Origin: Escherichia coli
GTDB taxonomy: Bacteria > Pseudomonadota > Gammaproteobacteria > Enterobacterales > Enterobacteriaceae
Length of the DNA: 64,000 nt
Reading direction: 5' to 3' (one strand)
Assembly: GCF_050920415.1 (NCBI RefSeq)
Contig: NZ_CP169309.1
Position numbers and translations under genes: made by a program
Part shown: positions 14,579 to 45,191 of the stretch, in pieces
Numbering within the stretch: the first letter of the stretch is position 1
Layout: each line of letters begins with the position of its first letter
The notes under the pieces: model-generated
What the model saw: only the letters and a program-made list of their open reading frames with translations
Database searches by the model: none
What the model was told of the DNA's origin: nothing

Positions 14579-15202
14579 TTAATCCAGTTGGGTAATATCA
14601 AAAGCGGCGCGGTCGATCACCGCAATGATCTTTTTTATTTGTGCATCAGTGATATCGCTCTGGTTGACGCGTAAATCCAGCACCGCTTTAAAATTATCCA
14701 GTGCCCGCTTCATTTGCGGGTTCTGACGGAGTGCAGCACCAACGCAACGCGCTTTGATGCGTTCTTCGATCATCTCCACCTGTTCGCGGTTTTCTTCCAG
14801 CCACTGCGCGCCCTGTTCGGTCAGCGCAATCTGCTTCTTACCACCTTCCTCTTCGCGGATGGTAATTAGCGACTGCTCCTGAAGAAAATCCAGCGTCGGG
14901 TAGATGACGCCCGGGCTTGGGGTGTAATTTCCCTGGGTCAGATTTTCAATCGCTTTAATCAATTCGTAACCGTGGCTGTCATCGCGCGAGAGAATATCCA
15001 GAATCACCAGACGCAATTCGCCGTGACCAAAGAAACGTTGCCGTCGACCGCCGCCGCGACCGTGGCGACCACCACAGCATTGACCGTGTTCATGCTGGTG
15101 ACCGTGTCCACAGTGTTCGTGTTCTGATTTCTCACCTTTGCAGCAGCCTTCATGACGTGGCTGGCCTTCATGTTTACAACACCCTTCGTGATGATGGCTC
15201 AT
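14579..15202 (-). CDS. yqjI: PadR-family transcriptional regulator YqjI (NfeR) with His/Cys-rich N-terminal metal-binding tail
   Basis: 207 aa; N-terminus MSHHHEGCCKHEGQPRHEGCCKGEKSEHEHCGHGHQHEHGQCCGG is a low-complexity His/Cys stretch; C-terminal PadR-like winged helix. Confidence 0.88.
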   Translation of the reverse strand: MSHHHEGCCKHEGQPRHEGCCKGEKSEHEHCGHGHQHEHGQCCGGRHGRGGGRRQRFFGHGELRLVILDILSRDDSHGYELIKAIENLTQGNYTPSPGVIYPTLDFLQEQSLITIREEEGGKKQIALTEQGAQWLEENREQVEMIEERIKARCVGAALRQNPQMKRALDNFKAVLDLRVNQSDITDAQIKKIIAVIDRAAFDITQLD

Positions 15203-15218
15203 ATCAGCCTCCTTTTGC

Positions 15219-15238
15219 TTAATTAGATATATCTAATT
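15219..15238. promoter_or_regulatory. perfect palindrome ttaATTAGATATATCTAATt immediately upstream of yqjI (candidate PadR/YqjI operator)
   Basis: Palindrome seen directly; a second near-copy ATTTAGATATATCTGATT lies at 15451-15470 upstream of yqjH. Confidence 0.55.
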
Positions 15239-15299
15239 TATATCTGATATGAGCGCTCTTGCAAGTGTAAAAATGATTTTTAAACGTGGACTCATCTCA

Positions 15300-15340
15300 C
15301 ACGTAGGCCGGATAAGGCGTTCACGCCGCATCCGGCGTTG
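15300..15340. repeat. REP element in the yqjI-yqjH intergenic region
   Basis: gtaggccggataaggcgttcacgccgcatccggc. Confidence 0.75.
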
Positions 15341-15420
15341 AGTAATGATGCCTGAGAAGAGGCTGTTCGTCTTATCAGACTATAGACATATCAATTCTAC
15401 AAATCGCTTGCATTTATCAT

Positions 15421-15440
15421 GATTAACAATCATTATCATT
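15421..15440. promoter_or_regulatory. candidate Fur box upstream of yqjH
   Basis: gattaacaatcattatcatt resembles Fur consensus GATAATGATAATCATTATC; ~50 bp upstream of yqjH start. Confidence 0.55.
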
Positions 15441-15489
15441 TACGAAAATTATTTAGATATATCTGATTACCATCACGAAGGCGATAACA

Positions 15490-16254
15490 ATGAATAACTC
15501 CCCCCGCTACCCGCAGCGCGTTCGCAATGATCTGCGCTTCCGTGAACTGACTGTGTTACGCGTTGAGCGTATCAGTGCCGGTTTTCAGCGCATTGTCCTC
15601 GGCGGCGAGGCGCTGGACGGTTTTACATCGCGCGGCTTTGACGATCACAGCAAACTCTTCTTTCCTCAATCTGACGTTCACTTTGTGCCGCCAGCGGTAA
15701 CGGAAGAGGGGATCGTCTGGCCGGAAGGACCACGCCCACCGTCGCGTGACTATACGCCACTGTATGACGAACAACGTCATGAACTGGCGATCGATTTCTT
15801 TATTCACGACGGCGGAGTCGCCAGCAGCTGGGCGATGCAGGCGCAACCGGGCGATAAACTCACGGTGGCAGGGCCGCGCGGTTCGCTGGTGGTGCCGGAA
15901 GATTACGCGTATCAGGTGTATGTTTGCGATGAGTCCGGAATGCCGGCACTGCGCCGCCGCCTGGAAACGTTGAGTAAACTTGCCGTTAAACCGCAAGTTA
16001 CCGCGCTGGTCAGCGTACAGGATAACGCCTGTCAGGATTATCTCGTGCACCTTGATGGTTTTAATATCGAATGGTTGGCGCATGATGAGCAGGCGGTAGA
16101 CGCACGCCTGGCGCAGCTGCAAATCCCTGCCGATGATTACTTCATCTGGATAACCGGCGAAGGCAAAGTCGTTAAGAATTTAAGCAGCCGCTTTGAAGCG
16201 GAACAGTATGACCCACAGCGGGTACGCGCAGCGGCTTACTGGCACGAAAAGTAA
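15490..16254 (+). CDS. yqjH: siderophore-interacting protein / NADPH-dependent ferric-chelate reductase YqjH (NfeF)
   Basis: 254 aa; FAD-binding ferredoxin-reductase-like fold (SIP family), recognised. Confidence 0.88.
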   Translation: MNNSPRYPQRVRNDLRFRELTVLRVERISAGFQRIVLGGEALDGFTSRGFDDHSKLFFPQSDVHFVPPAVTEEGIVWPEGPRPPSRDYTPLYDEQRHELAIDFFIHDGGVASSWAMQAQPGDKLTVAGPRGSLVVPEDYAYQVYVCDESGMPALRRRLETLSKLAVKPQVTALVSVQDNACQDYLVHLDGFNIEWLAHDEQAVDARLAQLQIPADDYFIWITGEGKVVKNLSSRFEAEQYDPQRVRAAAYWHEK

Positions 16255-16307: not shown

Positions 16308-16383
16308 TGGTGGCCCCTGCTGGACTTGAACCAGCGACCAAGCGATTATGAGTCGCCTGCTCTAACCACTGAGCTAAGGGGCC
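16308..16383 (-). tRNA. ileX: tRNA with CAU anticodon (tRNA-Ile2/lysidine type, ileX position)
   Basis: Reverse complement reads GGCCCCTTAGCTCAGTGGTTAGAGCAGGCGACTCATAATCGCTTGGTCGCTGGTTCAAGTCCAGCAGGGGCCACCA: cloverleaf with CAT anticodon and encoded CCA; sits between mug and yqjH as in K-12. Confidence 0.9.
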
Positions 16384-31018: not shown

Positions 31019-32224
31019 TTACGCCGCCTTACGGGCGCGTCCTTTACGGACTGACGGCAATATTTGTCCTGCCGCCATGACTTCAAAACCTGCTGTTAAT
31101 ATATTTCGAGCGCCGTTTACATCGGCGTTTGCCGTATAGCCGCACGCGGTACAGATAAAGCTCGCCTGCGCCCTGTGGTTATTTTTCGATGTATGCCCAC
31201 AACATGCGCATTTCTGACTGGTGTACGCCGGATTAATCGCCAGCACATCACCGCCGCGCCATGCCTGCTTATATTCGAGCTGGCGGCGCATTTCTGCCCA
31301 GCCCTGATCCAGTATCGCCCGGTTAAGACCTGATTTTGCCGCGACGTTGCGCCCCGGCTGGTCTACCGTACCCGCTGCTGATTTTGACATGTTCGAAACC
31401 TTTAAATCCTCAATGACTATCATCGCGTGGTTTTTGCTGATCGTCGTCGTGGTTTTATGAAGGTAATCGCGGCGGATGTTTGCGATATGAGAGTGGAAAC
31501 GGGAAATCTTCGCTTTCTGCTTTTTCCAGTTGGCGGAGAATTTAACCTTCCGGGCCAGATGGCGCTGTAAGCGAGCCAGCTTATCCTGATTTTTTTTAAA
31601 GCTGTTTACCGGTTTAAAGACCGTGCCGTCTGAAAGTGTTGCCAGCTTCGTTATACCTGCATCCAGGCCTATTGCGCTGGTCGATGCGTGAATCGGATCG
31701 GTAACAGCTAATTCGACCTGAAAAGACACATACCAGTGTCCGGCATGCTGGCTGATGGTGCAATTTTTAATGACGCCTTCAATCTTCCGGGACTGACGAA
31801 ATTTAACCCAGCCCAGTCCTGACGGGAGTTTCACACGGCCATAATCCAGCCCACAATATTTGCTGAAATTGACGAACCGAATAGAGTCGCAGCCTTTGGT
31901 TTTCTTTTTGAAAACGGGCTTTTCAGCCGTCAGGGATTTATCAAAACAGCGATCCCATGCGCTCCGCAGGTCTTTCAGTTTCTGCTGGAGGTTGTCAGTG
32001 TAACCCTCAGCAAGAAAGGCCAGCTCAGGGAGTTTTTTCCAGCCCGTAAGTCGTTTATTCAGGTCGAAAGCTGACGGAATTTTTCCGCCCGCGTCATGAA
32101 TGCTCAGTGTTTCATTCAGTGCATAGTTCCAGACAAAGCGAGCGCAACCGCACAACTGACGCAACCTTTGCGCCTGCTGGTCAGTGGGGTAGAGCCTGTA
32201 TTTATATGCTTTCTGGATTAACAT
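31019..32224 (-). CDS. tnpB: TnpB (OrfB_IS605) RuvC-like putative RNA-guided endonuclease
   Basis: 401 aa; MLIQKAYKYRLYPT N-terminus; RuvC-I IGLDAGITK (Asp), RuvC-II IVIEDLKV (Glu), C-terminal zinc ribbon CACCGH..CTACGY followed by ADVNGARNI (Asp). Confidence 0.9.
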   Translation of the reverse strand: MLIQKAYKYRLYPTDQQAQRLRQLCGCARFVWNYALNETLSIHDAGGKIPSAFDLNKRLTGWKKLPELAFLAEGYTDNLQQKLKDLRSAWDRCFDKSLTAEKPVFKKKTKGCDSIRFVNFSKYCGLDYGRVKLPSGLGWVKFRQSRKIEGVIKNCTISQHAGHWYVSFQVELAVTDPIHASTSAIGLDAGITKLATLSDGTVFKPVNSFKKNQDKLARLQRHLARKVKFSANWKKQKAKISRFHSHIANIRRDYLHKTTTTISKNHAMIVIEDLKVSNMSKSAAGTVDQPGRNVAAKSGLNRAILDQGWAEMRRQLEYKQAWRGGDVLAINPAYTSQKCACCGHTSKNNHRAQASFICTACGYTANADVNGARNILTAGFEVMAAGQILPSVRKGRARKAA

Positions 32225-32236
32225 TTTGCATTCAGT

Positions 32237-32689
32237 ATGTGGTTATTTAGAATGTACAATATATCCACATTTTTTTGGGAGGATCAATACGTGTGCGAAA
32301 TCAATCGTTCACGCTATTCAGCTTACCTGTTGCATGTTCACGTTGTTTTTATGACAAAATACCGCCGTCCAGTTTTTGGTGAATTGCATCATGCAAACAT
32401 GCGTCAGTATGTAGCGGAGGTATGCGCGGACTTTGGCGCCGAGTTAAAGGAATGTGACGGCGAGGCAGATCATGTTCACATGCTGATTGAATACCCACCG
32501 TTGGTGCAACTCACAAAGCTGGTAAACAGCCTTAAGTCCGTTACCAGTAGGCGGCTGCGGAATGATTTTATTGATTTGCGCGCCGCGTATTCAAAGCCCG
32601 TACTCTGGTCACGCTCTTATTTCATCGGTTCATGTGGTGGAGCACCGCTGGAAGTTGTGAAAAAGTATATTCAGAATCAGCGTGGCTGA
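32237..32689 (+). CDS. tnpA: IS200/IS605 TnpA, Y1 HUH single-strand transposase
   Basis: 150 aa; HUH motif DHVHMLIEYP and catalytic Tyr region LWSRSYFIGSCGGAPLEVVKKYIQNQ, closely resembling IS608 TnpA; exact start codon uncertain. Confidence 0.88.
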   Translation: MWLFRMYNISTFFWEDQYVCEINRSRYSAYLLHVHVVFMTKYRRPVFGELHHANMRQYVAEVCADFGAELKECDGEADHVHMLIEYPPLVQLTKLVNSLKSVTSRRLRNDFIDLRAAYSKPVLWSRSYFIGSCGGAPLEVVKKYIQNQRG

Positions 32690-38405: not shown

Positions 38406-38489
38406 CCGGAAAGCGGTTCACAGTTCTCGCGTTGTGCCGGATAGTCCTATTGACGCTGTTGTTTTTTCAACCTAAAGTAAAGGAACAAG

Positions 38490-38630
38490 GGTAAGGGAGG
38501 ATTTCTCCCCCCTCTGAATGGCCGTTAATAAGCGTGGAAACTTATCAGTAACAGCACAATCAGTATGATGACGAACTTCATCATAACCCTTTCCTTATAC
38601 AAGGCCCCTTCTTCGGGAGGGGCTTTCCCG
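38490..38630 (+). ncRNA. Sib-type antisense sRNA (antitoxin) covering the ibs ORF; ends approximate
   Basis: Plus-strand terminator hairpin gcccct-tcttcggg-aggggc then T-rich tract at 38604-38632; fully antisense to the ibs ORF, as in known Sib/Ibs loci between hldE and yqiK. Confidence 0.6.
38525..38584 (-). CDS. Ibs-family type I toxin, 19 aa hydrophobic peptide (MMKFVIILIVLLLISFHAY)
   Basis: Reverse complement atgatgaagttcgtcatcatactgattgtgctgttactgataagtttccacgcttattaa read directly; matches the Ibs toxin pattern; which named ibs paralog is uncertain. Confidence 0.8.
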   Translation of the reverse strand: MMKFVIILIVLLLISFHAY

Positions 38631-38866
38631 TTTCAGCCCCTTGCTGATTCCCCGATTGTTGATGAGCGCCAGACCCCGCGCAATGCTTTCCCTGATGCAC
38701 TTTTCTCTTCCCCGAGTCGGCTCGCAAAACGCTGTAACAACCTGATCATTTGTACTTTTTAGCGGAACGCAGATATAAAAAATCCCCGGCTTTTTGGGCC
38801 AGGGATATGTGTTAATGAAACCTTCTTGACGCTGATTTTTTTTCAACCTAAAGTAAAGGAACAAGG

Positions 38867-39007
38867 GTAAGGGAGGATTTCTCCCCCCTCTGAATTGGTT
38901 GTTAGTAAGTCGGGAAACTTAACAGTAACAACACAATCAGTATGATGACGAACTTCATCATAACCCTTTCCTTATACAAGGCCCCTTCCTCGGGAGGGGC
39001 TTTCCCG
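38867..39007 (+). ncRNA. Sib-type antisense sRNA (second copy); ends approximate
   Basis: Same architecture as copy 1, terminator hairpin at ~38981-39003. Confidence 0.6.
38902..38961 (-). CDS. Ibs-family type I toxin, 19 aa hydrophobic peptide (MMKFVIILIVLLLLSFPTY)
   Basis: Reverse complement atgatgaagttcgtcatcatactgattgtgttgttactgttaagtttcccgacttactaa read directly. Confidence 0.8.
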   Translation of the reverse strand: MMKFVIILIVLLLLSFPTY

Positions 39008-42321: not shown

Positions 42322-42443
42322 TGTAGTTTCCCTGTACTGATAGGTGTTGAGTGCCATTGTAGTGCGATAAGGGTAAGTCATAAACCAGAATTATGTGAAG
42401 CTATGCGTTGCTGCCGCTAATCATTAGCGTTATAGTGAATCCG

Positions 42444-42690
42444 CTTATTCTCAGGGCGGGGCGAAATTCCCCACCGGCGGTAAATCAACTCAGTTGAAAG
42501 CCCGCGAGCGCTTTGGGTGCGAACTCAAAGGACAGCAGATCCGGTGTAATTCCGGGGCCGACGGTTAGAGTCCGGATGGGAGAGAGTAACGATTCTGTCG
42601 GGCATGGACCCGCTCACGTTATTTTGGCTATATGCCGCCACTCCTAAGACTGCCCTGATTCTGGTAACCATAATTTTAGTGAGGTTTTTT
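42444..42690 (+). ncRNA. FMN riboswitch (RFN element) in the ribB leader; aptamer ~42444-42595 plus expression platform
   Basis: Conserved RFN segments agggcggggcgaaattccccaccggcggtaaa, cccgcgagcgctttgggtg, aggacagcagatccggtgtaattccggggccgacggttagagtccggatgggagagagtaacg seen directly. Confidence 0.85.
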
Positions 42691-43401: not shown

Positions 43402-44445
43402 CTAGTTGTAGTTGATTTTAACAATCAGGTCCTTTTGAAATGGGCCATAAACCAGTGTTGCACCTGGTTCTGTCGTTAGCTTCGCCTGGTAACTTCGTGT
43501 TATTACTGCTGGGGTTTCATTAGGTTTATAAGTAGTAAATAATTTATACTGATTAAATTTCATATCTGTCTTATCAACTTGATCTGTAATGTGCATTATA
43601 AGACCGTTTCCCATTTCTAAGTGTGTATTATCATATAATGTATCATCAGTGTAGAAACTGGTTGCGACATCAAATTGTTCGCTACAATTAGCAGTAGCAT
43701 CCCGAATTGTTGAAACATCAAATGTAGCTGTTGGTGGTATAGTCACGATTGTACTCGGGTCAATACGTCCGAAATTAACGATTTGACTTTCAGGGAAAAT
43801 GCGAATGTCTATGCTACAATCAAGAAAAGAAATATTGTCGAGTCCAGTAATATTAGCGTGTAAATTTTTGGCTCTATTATCGGTGTTTGCTCCTTGTGAA
43901 CCATCGAATTGCAATATATTGACCGTACTGAAGTCAATTTTCGTGTCCTTTGGGGGGTGTTGTTTAAGTTTTACATACAAGCGAAATCGAGCATTGAAGG
44001 TGACCTCTGTTTGGAGGACACCAGTATTAGTGCATGTGTCAGTCACAATCTGAAATGGGTTTGCTCTATCCAGACAATATCCTGTATCAATGCCCTGATT
44101 GTTTCCTTCGTAATCCTGTCCATTATAAGTTACACCAAATGTTAAGTATGGGTTGTTTATCACAGAGGGATCATTGAACTCTGCTATTTTTATCCAGGCA
44201 TGAACATTTTCATATGGATTGCTTTCTGACCAATTGACGGCCCTGTTGCAAAAAACTTTTGTATTAATATCATCGCTTTCCCAAATTTTCTGACCAATCT
44301 CAGCATCCTGTGGTACTTTGAACGCAGGCATAGGTTTATTTATTTCTGTATTACCAAAACGTTTATTCTGATAGCAATCGACTGCATAAGAAGAAACATT
44401 AACAAACAAGCACAATATTGCCAGGAGACGAAAAAGCATGATCAT
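43402..44445 (-). CDS. yqiI: fimbrial adhesin-like protein YqiI
   Basis: 347 aa with signal peptide; last gene of the chaperone-usher operon. Confidence 0.8.
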   Translation of the reverse strand: MIMLFRLLAILCLFVNVSSYAVDCYQNKRFGNTEINKPMPAFKVPQDAEIGQKIWESDDINTKVFCNRAVNWSESNPYENVHAWIKIAEFNDPSVINNPYLTFGVTYNGQDYEGNNQGIDTGYCLDRANPFQIVTDTCTNTGVLQTEVTFNARFRLYVKLKQHPPKDTKIDFSTVNILQFDGSQGANTDNRAKNLHANITGLDNISFLDCSIDIRIFPESQIVNFGRIDPSTIVTIPPTATFDVSTIRDATANCSEQFDVATSFYTDDTLYDNTHLEMGNGLIMHITDQVDKTDMKFNQYKLFTTYKPNETPAVITRSYQAKLTTEPGATLVYGPFQKDLIVKINYN

Positions 44446-45191
44446 AATTTTCCCTTCTTCGCAGGTGTAGCTTGGCAGAGTGACTGAACGGAATTACAGT
44501 CAATTTTGAACATTTCCAGCCCACCGTAATCACCAACAAAACCCAGTAGGAAGGTCGTCGGAAGGTTTTTAATTTGCTGAGTTGCAGTCCCAAAAGGGGT
44601 AACCATAATGCTGTCTGTTCCGGGCATTAATGTCTTGCCGTTAGTTCCGATATAACCGACGGTAATGTGATAAGGCGTCGGGTTATTCAGGGTCAACCCG
44701 GCGGCGCTGTGGGTAATCGTCAATTTTTGCAGGGGTACCATCTCTCCCTCTTTTAATTCAATCGATTTGGGTCGCCAGAACAGTTTCAGACGACTTTGCA
44801 TGGCGATTTGCATTACATTCTGTTCTTTGGCGCGCGGCGGAATTTCCCGCACGTTATAGTAAAACAGCGTTTCTCTGTCCTGTGGCAAGTTGTTTAATGC
44901 GGACAGCGCCATCAGGCGAATTTGCACTTGCTCATTGGCCTCGATACGTTCCATTGGGGGGAGCGTTGATATGTAATCGCGCGTTTTTTTACCGCTGGCG
45001 TCCTCAATCCACGATTGAGCTAAATAAGGATCGATTTTACTTTGGTTGGTCAGGCGAACAGTTGCGCTTTTATTTGAAGCATTAAAAATTATGCGCGTTC
45101 TGTCGGGGGAGACAGTCGCTTGGGCGAAGTTACAGAACCCCAGTAAACAAATCATTCCTGTTACGGTTAATAGCGATTTCATTTTTTTCAT
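44442..45191 (-). CDS. yqiH: periplasmic fimbrial chaperone YqiH (PapD-like)
   Basis: 249 aa with signal peptide, PapD-like pilus chaperone pattern; overlaps yqiI start. Confidence 0.85.
   Translation of the reverse strand: MKKMKSLLTVTGMICLLGFCNFAQATVSPDRTRIIFNASNKSATVRLTNQSKIDPYLAQSWIEDASGKKTRDYISTLPPMERIEANEQVQIRLMALSALNNLPQDRETLFYYNVREIPPRAKEQNVMQIAMQSRLKLFWRPKSIELKEGEMVPLQKLTITHSAAGLTLNNPTPYHITVGYIGTNGKTLMPGTDSIMVTPFGTATQQIKNLPTTFLLGFVGDYGGLEMFKIDCNSVQSLCQATPAKKGKL

Follow-up and report, generated by a model that had tools for sequence, protein, structure and literature searches.

A divergent nfeR/nfeF promoter region of Escherichia coli with two candidate NfeR operators and a Fur-like site, compared across seven genera

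Results

The locus and its genes

Positions 15203-15489 of the 64,000-nucleotide stretch of Escherichia coli DNA analyzed here (the window) correspond to the exact 287-bp spacer, with 37% G+C, between two divergent genes, nfeR (yqjI) and nfeF (yqjH). An earlier note on this DNA had named the genes yqjI and yqjH, and these identities are right: RefSeq lists the products as DNA-binding transcriptional regulator NfeR and NADPH-dependent ferric chelate reductase NfeF, and Pfam assigns a PadR winged-helix domain to the former (PF03551; residues 67-136; 56.6 bits against a gathering score of 27) and FAD_binding_9 and SIP domains to the latter (124.9 and 90.2 bits, respectively). The pair thereby has the composition of an nfeR-nfeF locus, namely a PadR-type regulator bearing a metal-binding N-terminal tail and, divergent from it, a FAD reductase of the SIP family. 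NfeR is without a solved structure, and only distant relatives are available in the Protein Data Bank (E values down to 6e-9). For this region we computed the sequence elements, their excess over chance, where they lie with respect to the conserved promoter hexamers, and how far they are conserved in seven genera. The resulting features are collected in Table 1.

The chromosomal context of the locus is backed by its neighbors aer, an ileX-type tRNA, mug and rpoD. The 1,676-bp segment comprising the locus is 100% identical to that of E. coli strain MFDS1022581, and most of it is found in 5,421 of 5,426 complete E. coli genomes. The neighboring tRNA (16308-16383, minus strand) is called Met (anticodon CAT) by ARAGORN and tRNA-Ile by RefSeq; it is of the ileX type, which reads Ile codons after lysidine modification.

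Several further elements were recorded elsewhere in the window. ISEc41, a member of the IS200/IS605 family encoding TnpB and TnpA, lies between ygiM and ygiF (31019-32689), and IS2 (44440-45668) breaks a fimbrial operon beside a truncated pilus assembly pseudogene. Among RNA elements, we detected two Sib antitoxin RNA/Ibs toxin pairs (38450-38976), an FMN riboswitch ahead of ribB (42443-42591), and a match to naRNA4 (REP325-type; 647-728) that is located between fadH and ygjK and scores just over threshold.

Table 1. Coordinates of genes, predicted promoter elements and candidate regulatory sites at the nfeR-nfeF locus
Feature	Position	Strand	Description
nfeR (yqjI)	14579-15202	-	PadR-family repressor, 207 aa; open reading frame, RefSeq name and Pfam
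His/Cys/Gly-rich NfeR tail	15038-15202	-	55 aa, 12 His, 7 Cys; begins MSHHHEGCCKHEGQPRHEGCCKGEKSEHEHCGHGHQHEHGQCCGG
nfeR ribosome-binding site (RBS) AGGAGG	15208-15213	-	Read from sequence
Site II, candidate NfeR operator at nfeR promoter	15221-15238		Perfect 18-bp palindrome AATTAGATATATCTAATT
Predicted nfeR -10, TATAAA	15237-15242	-	TATAAAT over 15236-15242; conserved as (A/G)TATA(A/G)AT
Extra half-site TATATCTGAT	15239-15248		11 bp in direct register after TATATCTAAT (15228-15237); extends site II over nfeR -10
Predicted nfeR -35, TTGCAA	15259-15264	-	CTTGCAAG conserved in 7/8 groups
REP pair, BIME-like	15306-15381		REP hairpin 15307-15336 and degenerate second REP 15352-15378
Operator-like block TAGACATATCAA	15383-15394		Upstream of nfeF -35; 2 mismatches to operator core; AGATATATCAG in K-12
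Favored nfeF -35, TTGCAT	15408-15413	+	CTTGCA conserved across genera, 17 nt from invariant CATTAT
Fur box region (candidate)	15414-15443		Overlapping 7-1-7 matches 15414-15428 and 15424-15438; best 19-mer GTAAATGATAATGATTGTT, 15425-15443, minus strand
Alternative nfeF promoter	TTAACA 15423-15428 / AATTAT 15447-15452	+	Spacer 18
Favored nfeF -10, CATTAT	15431-15436	+	
Site I, candidate NfeR operator at nfeF promoter	15451-15468		ATTTAGATATATCTGATT, near-copy of AATTAGATATATCTAATT with 2 mismatches
nfeF RBS GAAGG	15477-15481	+	CACGAAGGCG conserved
nfeF (yqjH)	15490-16254	+	NADPH-dependent ferric-siderophore reductase, 254 aa; open reading frame and Pfam

Operator-like palindromes at both ends of the spacer

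The two palindromes singled out in the earlier note, a perfect one beside yqjI and a near-copy of it beside yqjH, are both present, and they occur far above chance. When up to three mismatches are allowed, AATTAGATATATCTAATT has two matches in the entire 64 kb, sites I and II, against an expectation of 0.00 (100 shuffles). The 12-bp core TAGATATATCTA, searched with up to two mismatches, has four matches in the window against 0.96 expected, and three of these fall within the 287-bp spacer. Each of the two promoters carries one inverted repeat, and both repeats are of the same palindrome type, in which TTAGATAT and ATATCTAA meet at the center. The extension of site II by a further half-site, the REP pair in the spacer interior, and the prior description of the locus were not part of that note.

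To assess conservation, the PadR and C-terminal portion of NfeR served as the query against a single genome of each species, and 33 loci were retrieved, belonging to Escherichia, Citrobacter, Enterobacter, Lelliottia, Superficieibacter, Raoultella and Enterobacillus. In the 32 scanned loci that yielded both genes (33 counting the K-12 record), nfeR and nfeF lie side by side in divergent orientation, and an operator-like palindrome lies at both ends of the spacer in all 33 loci that have both genes. Site I is centered 26.5-30.5 bp upstream of the nfeF start codon, one Citrobacter locus excepted (39.5 bp), and the nfeR ATG follows the 12-bp core of site II by 15-22 nt (3-7 nt in three loci in which the first in-frame ATG was used). 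An anchored comparison of eight lineage groups resolves these elements further: TTTAGATATATC of site I is kept in seven to eight of the groups, the site II core GATATATC in all eight, and TATATCT of the adjacent half-site (15239-15245) in seven. Upstream of nfeF, the conserved blocks are CTTGCA(T/A), CAATCATTATCATT and CACGAAGGCG, of which CAATCATTATCATT is invariant in most genera and holds its position across related loci. This cross-genus footprint independently supports the two putative operators and the candidate Fur/-10 block. Most genera additionally have a TATATCA motif with an A-tract 8-13 nt upstream of the nfeF -35, to which the operator-like block at 15383-15394 corresponds. This block may serve as an auxiliary NfeR contact, as an UP element, or as the PepA site reported from gSELEX.

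In view of that report, one may ask if a protein other than NfeR, such as PepA or a nucleoid protein, binds the palindromes. PepA, an aminopeptidase that is also a DNA-binding protein, produced a single gSELEX peak in E. coli K-12, found only in the nfeF/nfeR spacer (PMC8249747), and the very A+T-rich character of the sites is compatible with such a binder. However, binding of PepA need not involve the palindromes of sites I and II, and these accompany nfeR in every genus, with one at each promoter reportedly under NfeR control. PadR-family dimers, moreover, bind palindromes, and deletion of nfeR in Klebsiella pneumoniae de-represses nfeF, raising its expression 85-fold (PMC7981267). We consider it extremely unlikely that another protein, and not NfeR, is the ligand of these sites.

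Promoters and translation signals

The predicted nfeR promoter is the same as that obtained by Shimada et al. (2014) using RNA polymerase gSELEX, TTGCAA-16-TATAAA (PMC3946193), and an AGGAG-type motif precedes the nfeR ATG in most genera. The promoter overlaps site II, with the extra half-site lying over the -10 and the palindrome over the expected, that is, predicted, transcription start.

For nfeF, two promoters are candidates. The -35/-10 assignment that we favor is TTGCAT-17-CATTAT, the best-conserved pair. A consensus promoter scan gave only TTAACA-18-AATTAT (9/12), and not this favored pair. The nfeF promoter of Shimada et al., TTAACA-18-TTTTAT, has the -35 hexamer and spacer of the alternative pair, but not its -10 (PMC3946193). 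The alternative -10 (AATTAT) sits in a poorly conserved stretch. As a whole, the consensus scan for promoters and terminators yielded one weak promoter-like site and zero terminators, which is not above shuffle expectation. If the favored promoter is used, the Fur box would cover the spacer, the -10 and the start, and site I would lie at about +8 to +26; if the alternative promoter is used, site I would lie over the -10. Under either assignment, both repressors would be placed to occlude polymerase.

Two other potential control elements were examined in the spacer. A perfect 11-nt inverted repeat (15197-15207 and 15244-15254) brackets site II and takes in the nfeR start codon, suggesting an mRNA hairpin that could hide the nfeR RBS. 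We rejected this candidate because the 5' arm of the hairpin falls between the predicted -35 and -10 and would hence be untranscribed, and because the changes in K-12 and E. albertii are non-compensated and the repeat is absent from other genera. The IHF consensus WATCAANNNNTTR has no match in the spacer.

A Fur-like site over the predicted nfeF promoter

A Fur-box-like sequence, gattaacaatcattatcatt, had also been proposed upstream of yqjH, and it is located at 15421-15440. A strict search with the 19-bp Fur consensus gave no hit within three mismatches, either at gattaacaatcattatcatt or elsewhere. The best register against this consensus (GATAATGATAATCATTATC) agrees at 14 of 19 positions (15425-15443, minus strand), and 7-1-7 units are present with three mismatches at 15414-15428 and with two at 15424-15438. 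The site therefore resembles the Fur-box consensus to a moderate, not a strong, degree, and it is only moderately above chance: at least 14/19 was reached by 25 of 3,000 random 50-mers of the same composition (~0.8%, p about 0.008), and nine registers across the window reach at least 14/19, with several A+T-rich places equaling the nfeF site. A model of Fur recognition based on hexamer repeats was unspecific, returning 23 hits. Judged by sequence alone, then, the Fur box is suggestive but not outstanding. Its region overlaps both candidate nfeF promoters.

Features of this kind could arise if the Fur-like sequence were only A+T-rich nfeF promoter sequence, covering the -10 and the spacer, with Fur having no direct action here. 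Such a reading accommodates the other A+T-rich places in the window with the same 14/19 identity, as well as the finding that the most conserved part of the site, CATTAT, is the predicted -10; the invariant CAATCATTATCATT could indeed be conserved in part as a -10. Set against this are the rarity of so good a match among the composition-matched 50-mers, the length of the conserved block (14-15 nt, more than a -10 needs), and the persistence of a 12-15/19 Fur match at the same position in 19 of 19 loci tested, despite divergence in the left half of the box. In addition, nfeF (yqjH) is assigned to the Fur regulon (PMC9508795, PMC9501238), and Fur is described in the literature as regulating it directly. 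An origin of the site in promoter sequence only is, in our judgment, very unlikely, and we favor direct repression of nfeF by Fur.

Other parts of the window also match the Fur consensus. The best match overall (15/19, GATTATGTTAATCATCATG) is at 61480-61498 on the minus strand, in the mdaB-ygiZ intergenic region. Overlapping matches of 13-14/19 cluster at 49993-50020, where a fimbrial-like gene is preceded by a GATGATCATCATCATTGTTATC stretch; this cluster belongs to a low-G+C segment (41-47% G+C over 40-50 kb) and may be a mere effect of low complexity.

Allelic variation and a REP pair in the spacer

Among six aligned E. coli alleles, the operators and the Fur block are invariant, and the spacer interior is polymorphic. 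The window does not differ from E. coli K-12 in site I, in the Fur block, in either set of -35/-10 candidates or in either RBS. In K-12, site II has G instead of A at 15221, which leaves an imperfect palindrome, and the spacer is 11 bp shorter through a loss within the degenerate second REP, accompanied by many other interior differences. The perfect palindrome and a spacer of 286-287 bp are common to the window, O157:H7, SMS-3-5, BCE-1 and X14-3. On this comparison, K-12 is the atypical allele, and the allele of the window is not unusual. At the protein level, NfeR is 99% identical to that of K-12, whereas NfeF is only about 95% identical. Only 16 of 5,459 matching records reach an identity of at least 99% over the locus. 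Together with the value for NfeF, this marks nfeF and the interior of the spacer as unusually polymorphic in E. coli.

The REP pair in the spacer interior has the characteristics of REP/BIME sequences: it is a G+C-rich imperfect palindrome of the ~35-nt type, dispersed in many copies. It folds as two hairpins (z=-3.8) and gives a full-length match to the REP-derived Rfam family naRNA4 with 48.5 bits (E=1.2e-7). Because this score is under the gathering score of 59.5, we have not filed the pair as naRNA4; no Rfam family is above threshold within the spacer. The REP segment is repeated across E. coli genomes, with a median of 31 places in each, and it is the presence of the pair in the spacer that causes the query sequence to hit so many places. 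In the stretches compared from other genera, no REP-like G+C-rich hairpin is visible, and the distance between the two sites is 217-230 bp in Escherichia versus 96-185 bp in other genera. Within this set of genera, only Escherichia has the REP pair inserted between the sites, and the pair appears to be a passenger insertion.

The variable distance bears on whether the two operators are independent, each NfeR dimer simply blocking the promoter at which it sits, without cooperation or looping across the 230 bp that separate the sites. Independence would readily accommodate a center-to-center spacing that ranges from 96 to 230 bp, with 13 distinct values in 35 sequences and no significant helical periodicity. 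The best helical period, 11.0 bp (R=0.62), was equaled by 967 of 5,000 random distance sets (19%), and we therefore do not claim a signature of helical phasing or looping. The alteration of the Escherichia spacing by the REP insertion, the differences of 1-13 bp among E. coli alleles, and the overlap of each site with its own promoter point in the same direction. On the other hand, a period of 11.0 bp is the in vivo helical repeat, and the K-12 and common alleles differ by 11 bp, about one helical turn. Experimental work on these promoters reportedly found an extended YqjI footprint at the yqjI promoter and a need for the two sites to communicate. Mutation of either site is said to weaken repression of both promoters, and shortening the spacer is said to disrupt nfeF control; these effects, too, speak against independence. 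The REP elements were reportedly dispensable. The conserved extra half-site fits the reported extended footprint, and the confinement of the REPs to Escherichia fits their reported dispensability. Communication between binding sites is also stated as a requirement in the title of Wang et al. (2014). We regard fully independent operators as possible but doubtful.

A lineage-specific N-terminal tail

The unusual His/Cys-rich tail of the regulator is exactly as the earlier note had quoted it (Table 1), but it is lineage-specific. In the window, the 55-aa tail precedes the RFFG motif that opens the PadR-homologous region. Among orthologs, the tail that precedes the corresponding R(F/L)FG motif is between 10 and 83 aa long, and Cys residues are limited to Escherichia and Citrobacter, in which 3-10 Cys occur in HEGCC-type repeats. 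The tail of Enterobacter and Lelliottia consists only of MRHEH(D/E)GGGRRP (10-12 aa without Cys), that of Raoultella is composed of His, Glu and Gly without Cys, and those of Superficieibacter and Enterobacillus are also Cys-free. Both operators persist in all genera, whatever the tail. Because the tail Cys are absent in Enterobacter, Raoultella and others, a nickel mechanism based on the tail is not general to the family.

We tentatively speculate that the Cys-rich nickel-sensing tail is a recent add-on of Escherichia and Citrobacter, expandable through HEGCC units (32-83 aa), and that the ancestral NfeR-operator circuit, kept without it elsewhere, answers another signal or none. As part of the same proposal, the TATATCA block and the extra half-site would provide auxiliary contacts for NfeR, and the cross-talk that has been reported between the sites would run through them. 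Given how plastic the tail is, it may be asked whether nickel sensing holds in genera other than Escherichia and Citrobacter, a point that bears on the virulence phenotype described for nfeR in Klebsiella. Tail variability is the one point here that is perhaps not obviously covered by the literature.

Discussion

The control region between nfeR and nfeF is already known and characterized; it was published in 2011-2014 and is reflected in the RefSeq gene names. Dual control of the ferric reductase gene by iron, through Fur, and by nickel or another metal, through YqjI, had been suggested in the earlier note on this DNA and coincides with the published model (Wang, Wu & Outten, 2011; Wang et al., 2014). 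To this our cross-genus footprint adds support for the operators and the Fur/-10 block. We draw on the literature for NfeR and Fur binding, the nickel response and Fur dependence: NfeR represses nfeF and excess nickel relieves this repression (PMC7981267), nickel upregulates nfeR (PMC9508795), and the effectors of YqjI are given as nickel and Fe2+ (PMC6649764).

Combining these reports with the sequence features, we conclude, with a probability of about 0.93, that 15203-15489 is the divergent nfeR/nfeF promoter region, jointly controlled by NfeR at sites I and II and by Fe2+-Fur at 15414-15443, with nickel causing de-repression. The geometry of occlusion that we infer is as follows. NfeR dimers would bind site I, just downstream of or over the nfeF start region, and site II together with its adjacent half-site, covering the -10 and start of nfeR. 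With operators on both promoters, NfeR would therefore occlude RNA polymerase and so repress nfeF as well as its own gene. Ni(II) bound to the His/Cys-rich tail would lower the affinity of NfeR for DNA, such that both genes become de-repressed. Independently of NfeR, Fe2+-Fur would repress nfeF via the A+T-rich box that extends over the nfeF spacer and -10. Because NfeR and Fur would each repress nfeF, its full expression would be expected only at low iron or high nickel.

For a region with this history, the value of the comparison is modest. It delimits the functional elements by a phylogenetic footprint, and it identifies K-12 as atypical, the REP pair as confined to Escherichia, and the NfeR tail as plastic.

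NfeR shares several properties with the PadR-family repressors PadR and LmrR, including a winged-helix PadR domain, an inverted-repeat operator of the type bound by dimers, and autoregulation. The NfeR operator core GATATATC appears to differ from operators of the ATGT-N8-ACAT type. Unlike PadR and LmrR, NfeR possesses a 55-aa metal-binding N-terminal extension, and it senses metal and not a phenolic or drug ligand. A similar mixture of likeness and difference is apparent when nfeF is placed beside classical Fur-repressed promoters. Like these, nfeF has an A+T-rich box (14/19) with overlapping 7-1-7 units across the predicted promoter core; unlike textbook Fur boxes, its match to the consensus is weaker, and it is paired with a second metal-responsive repressor that acts downstream.
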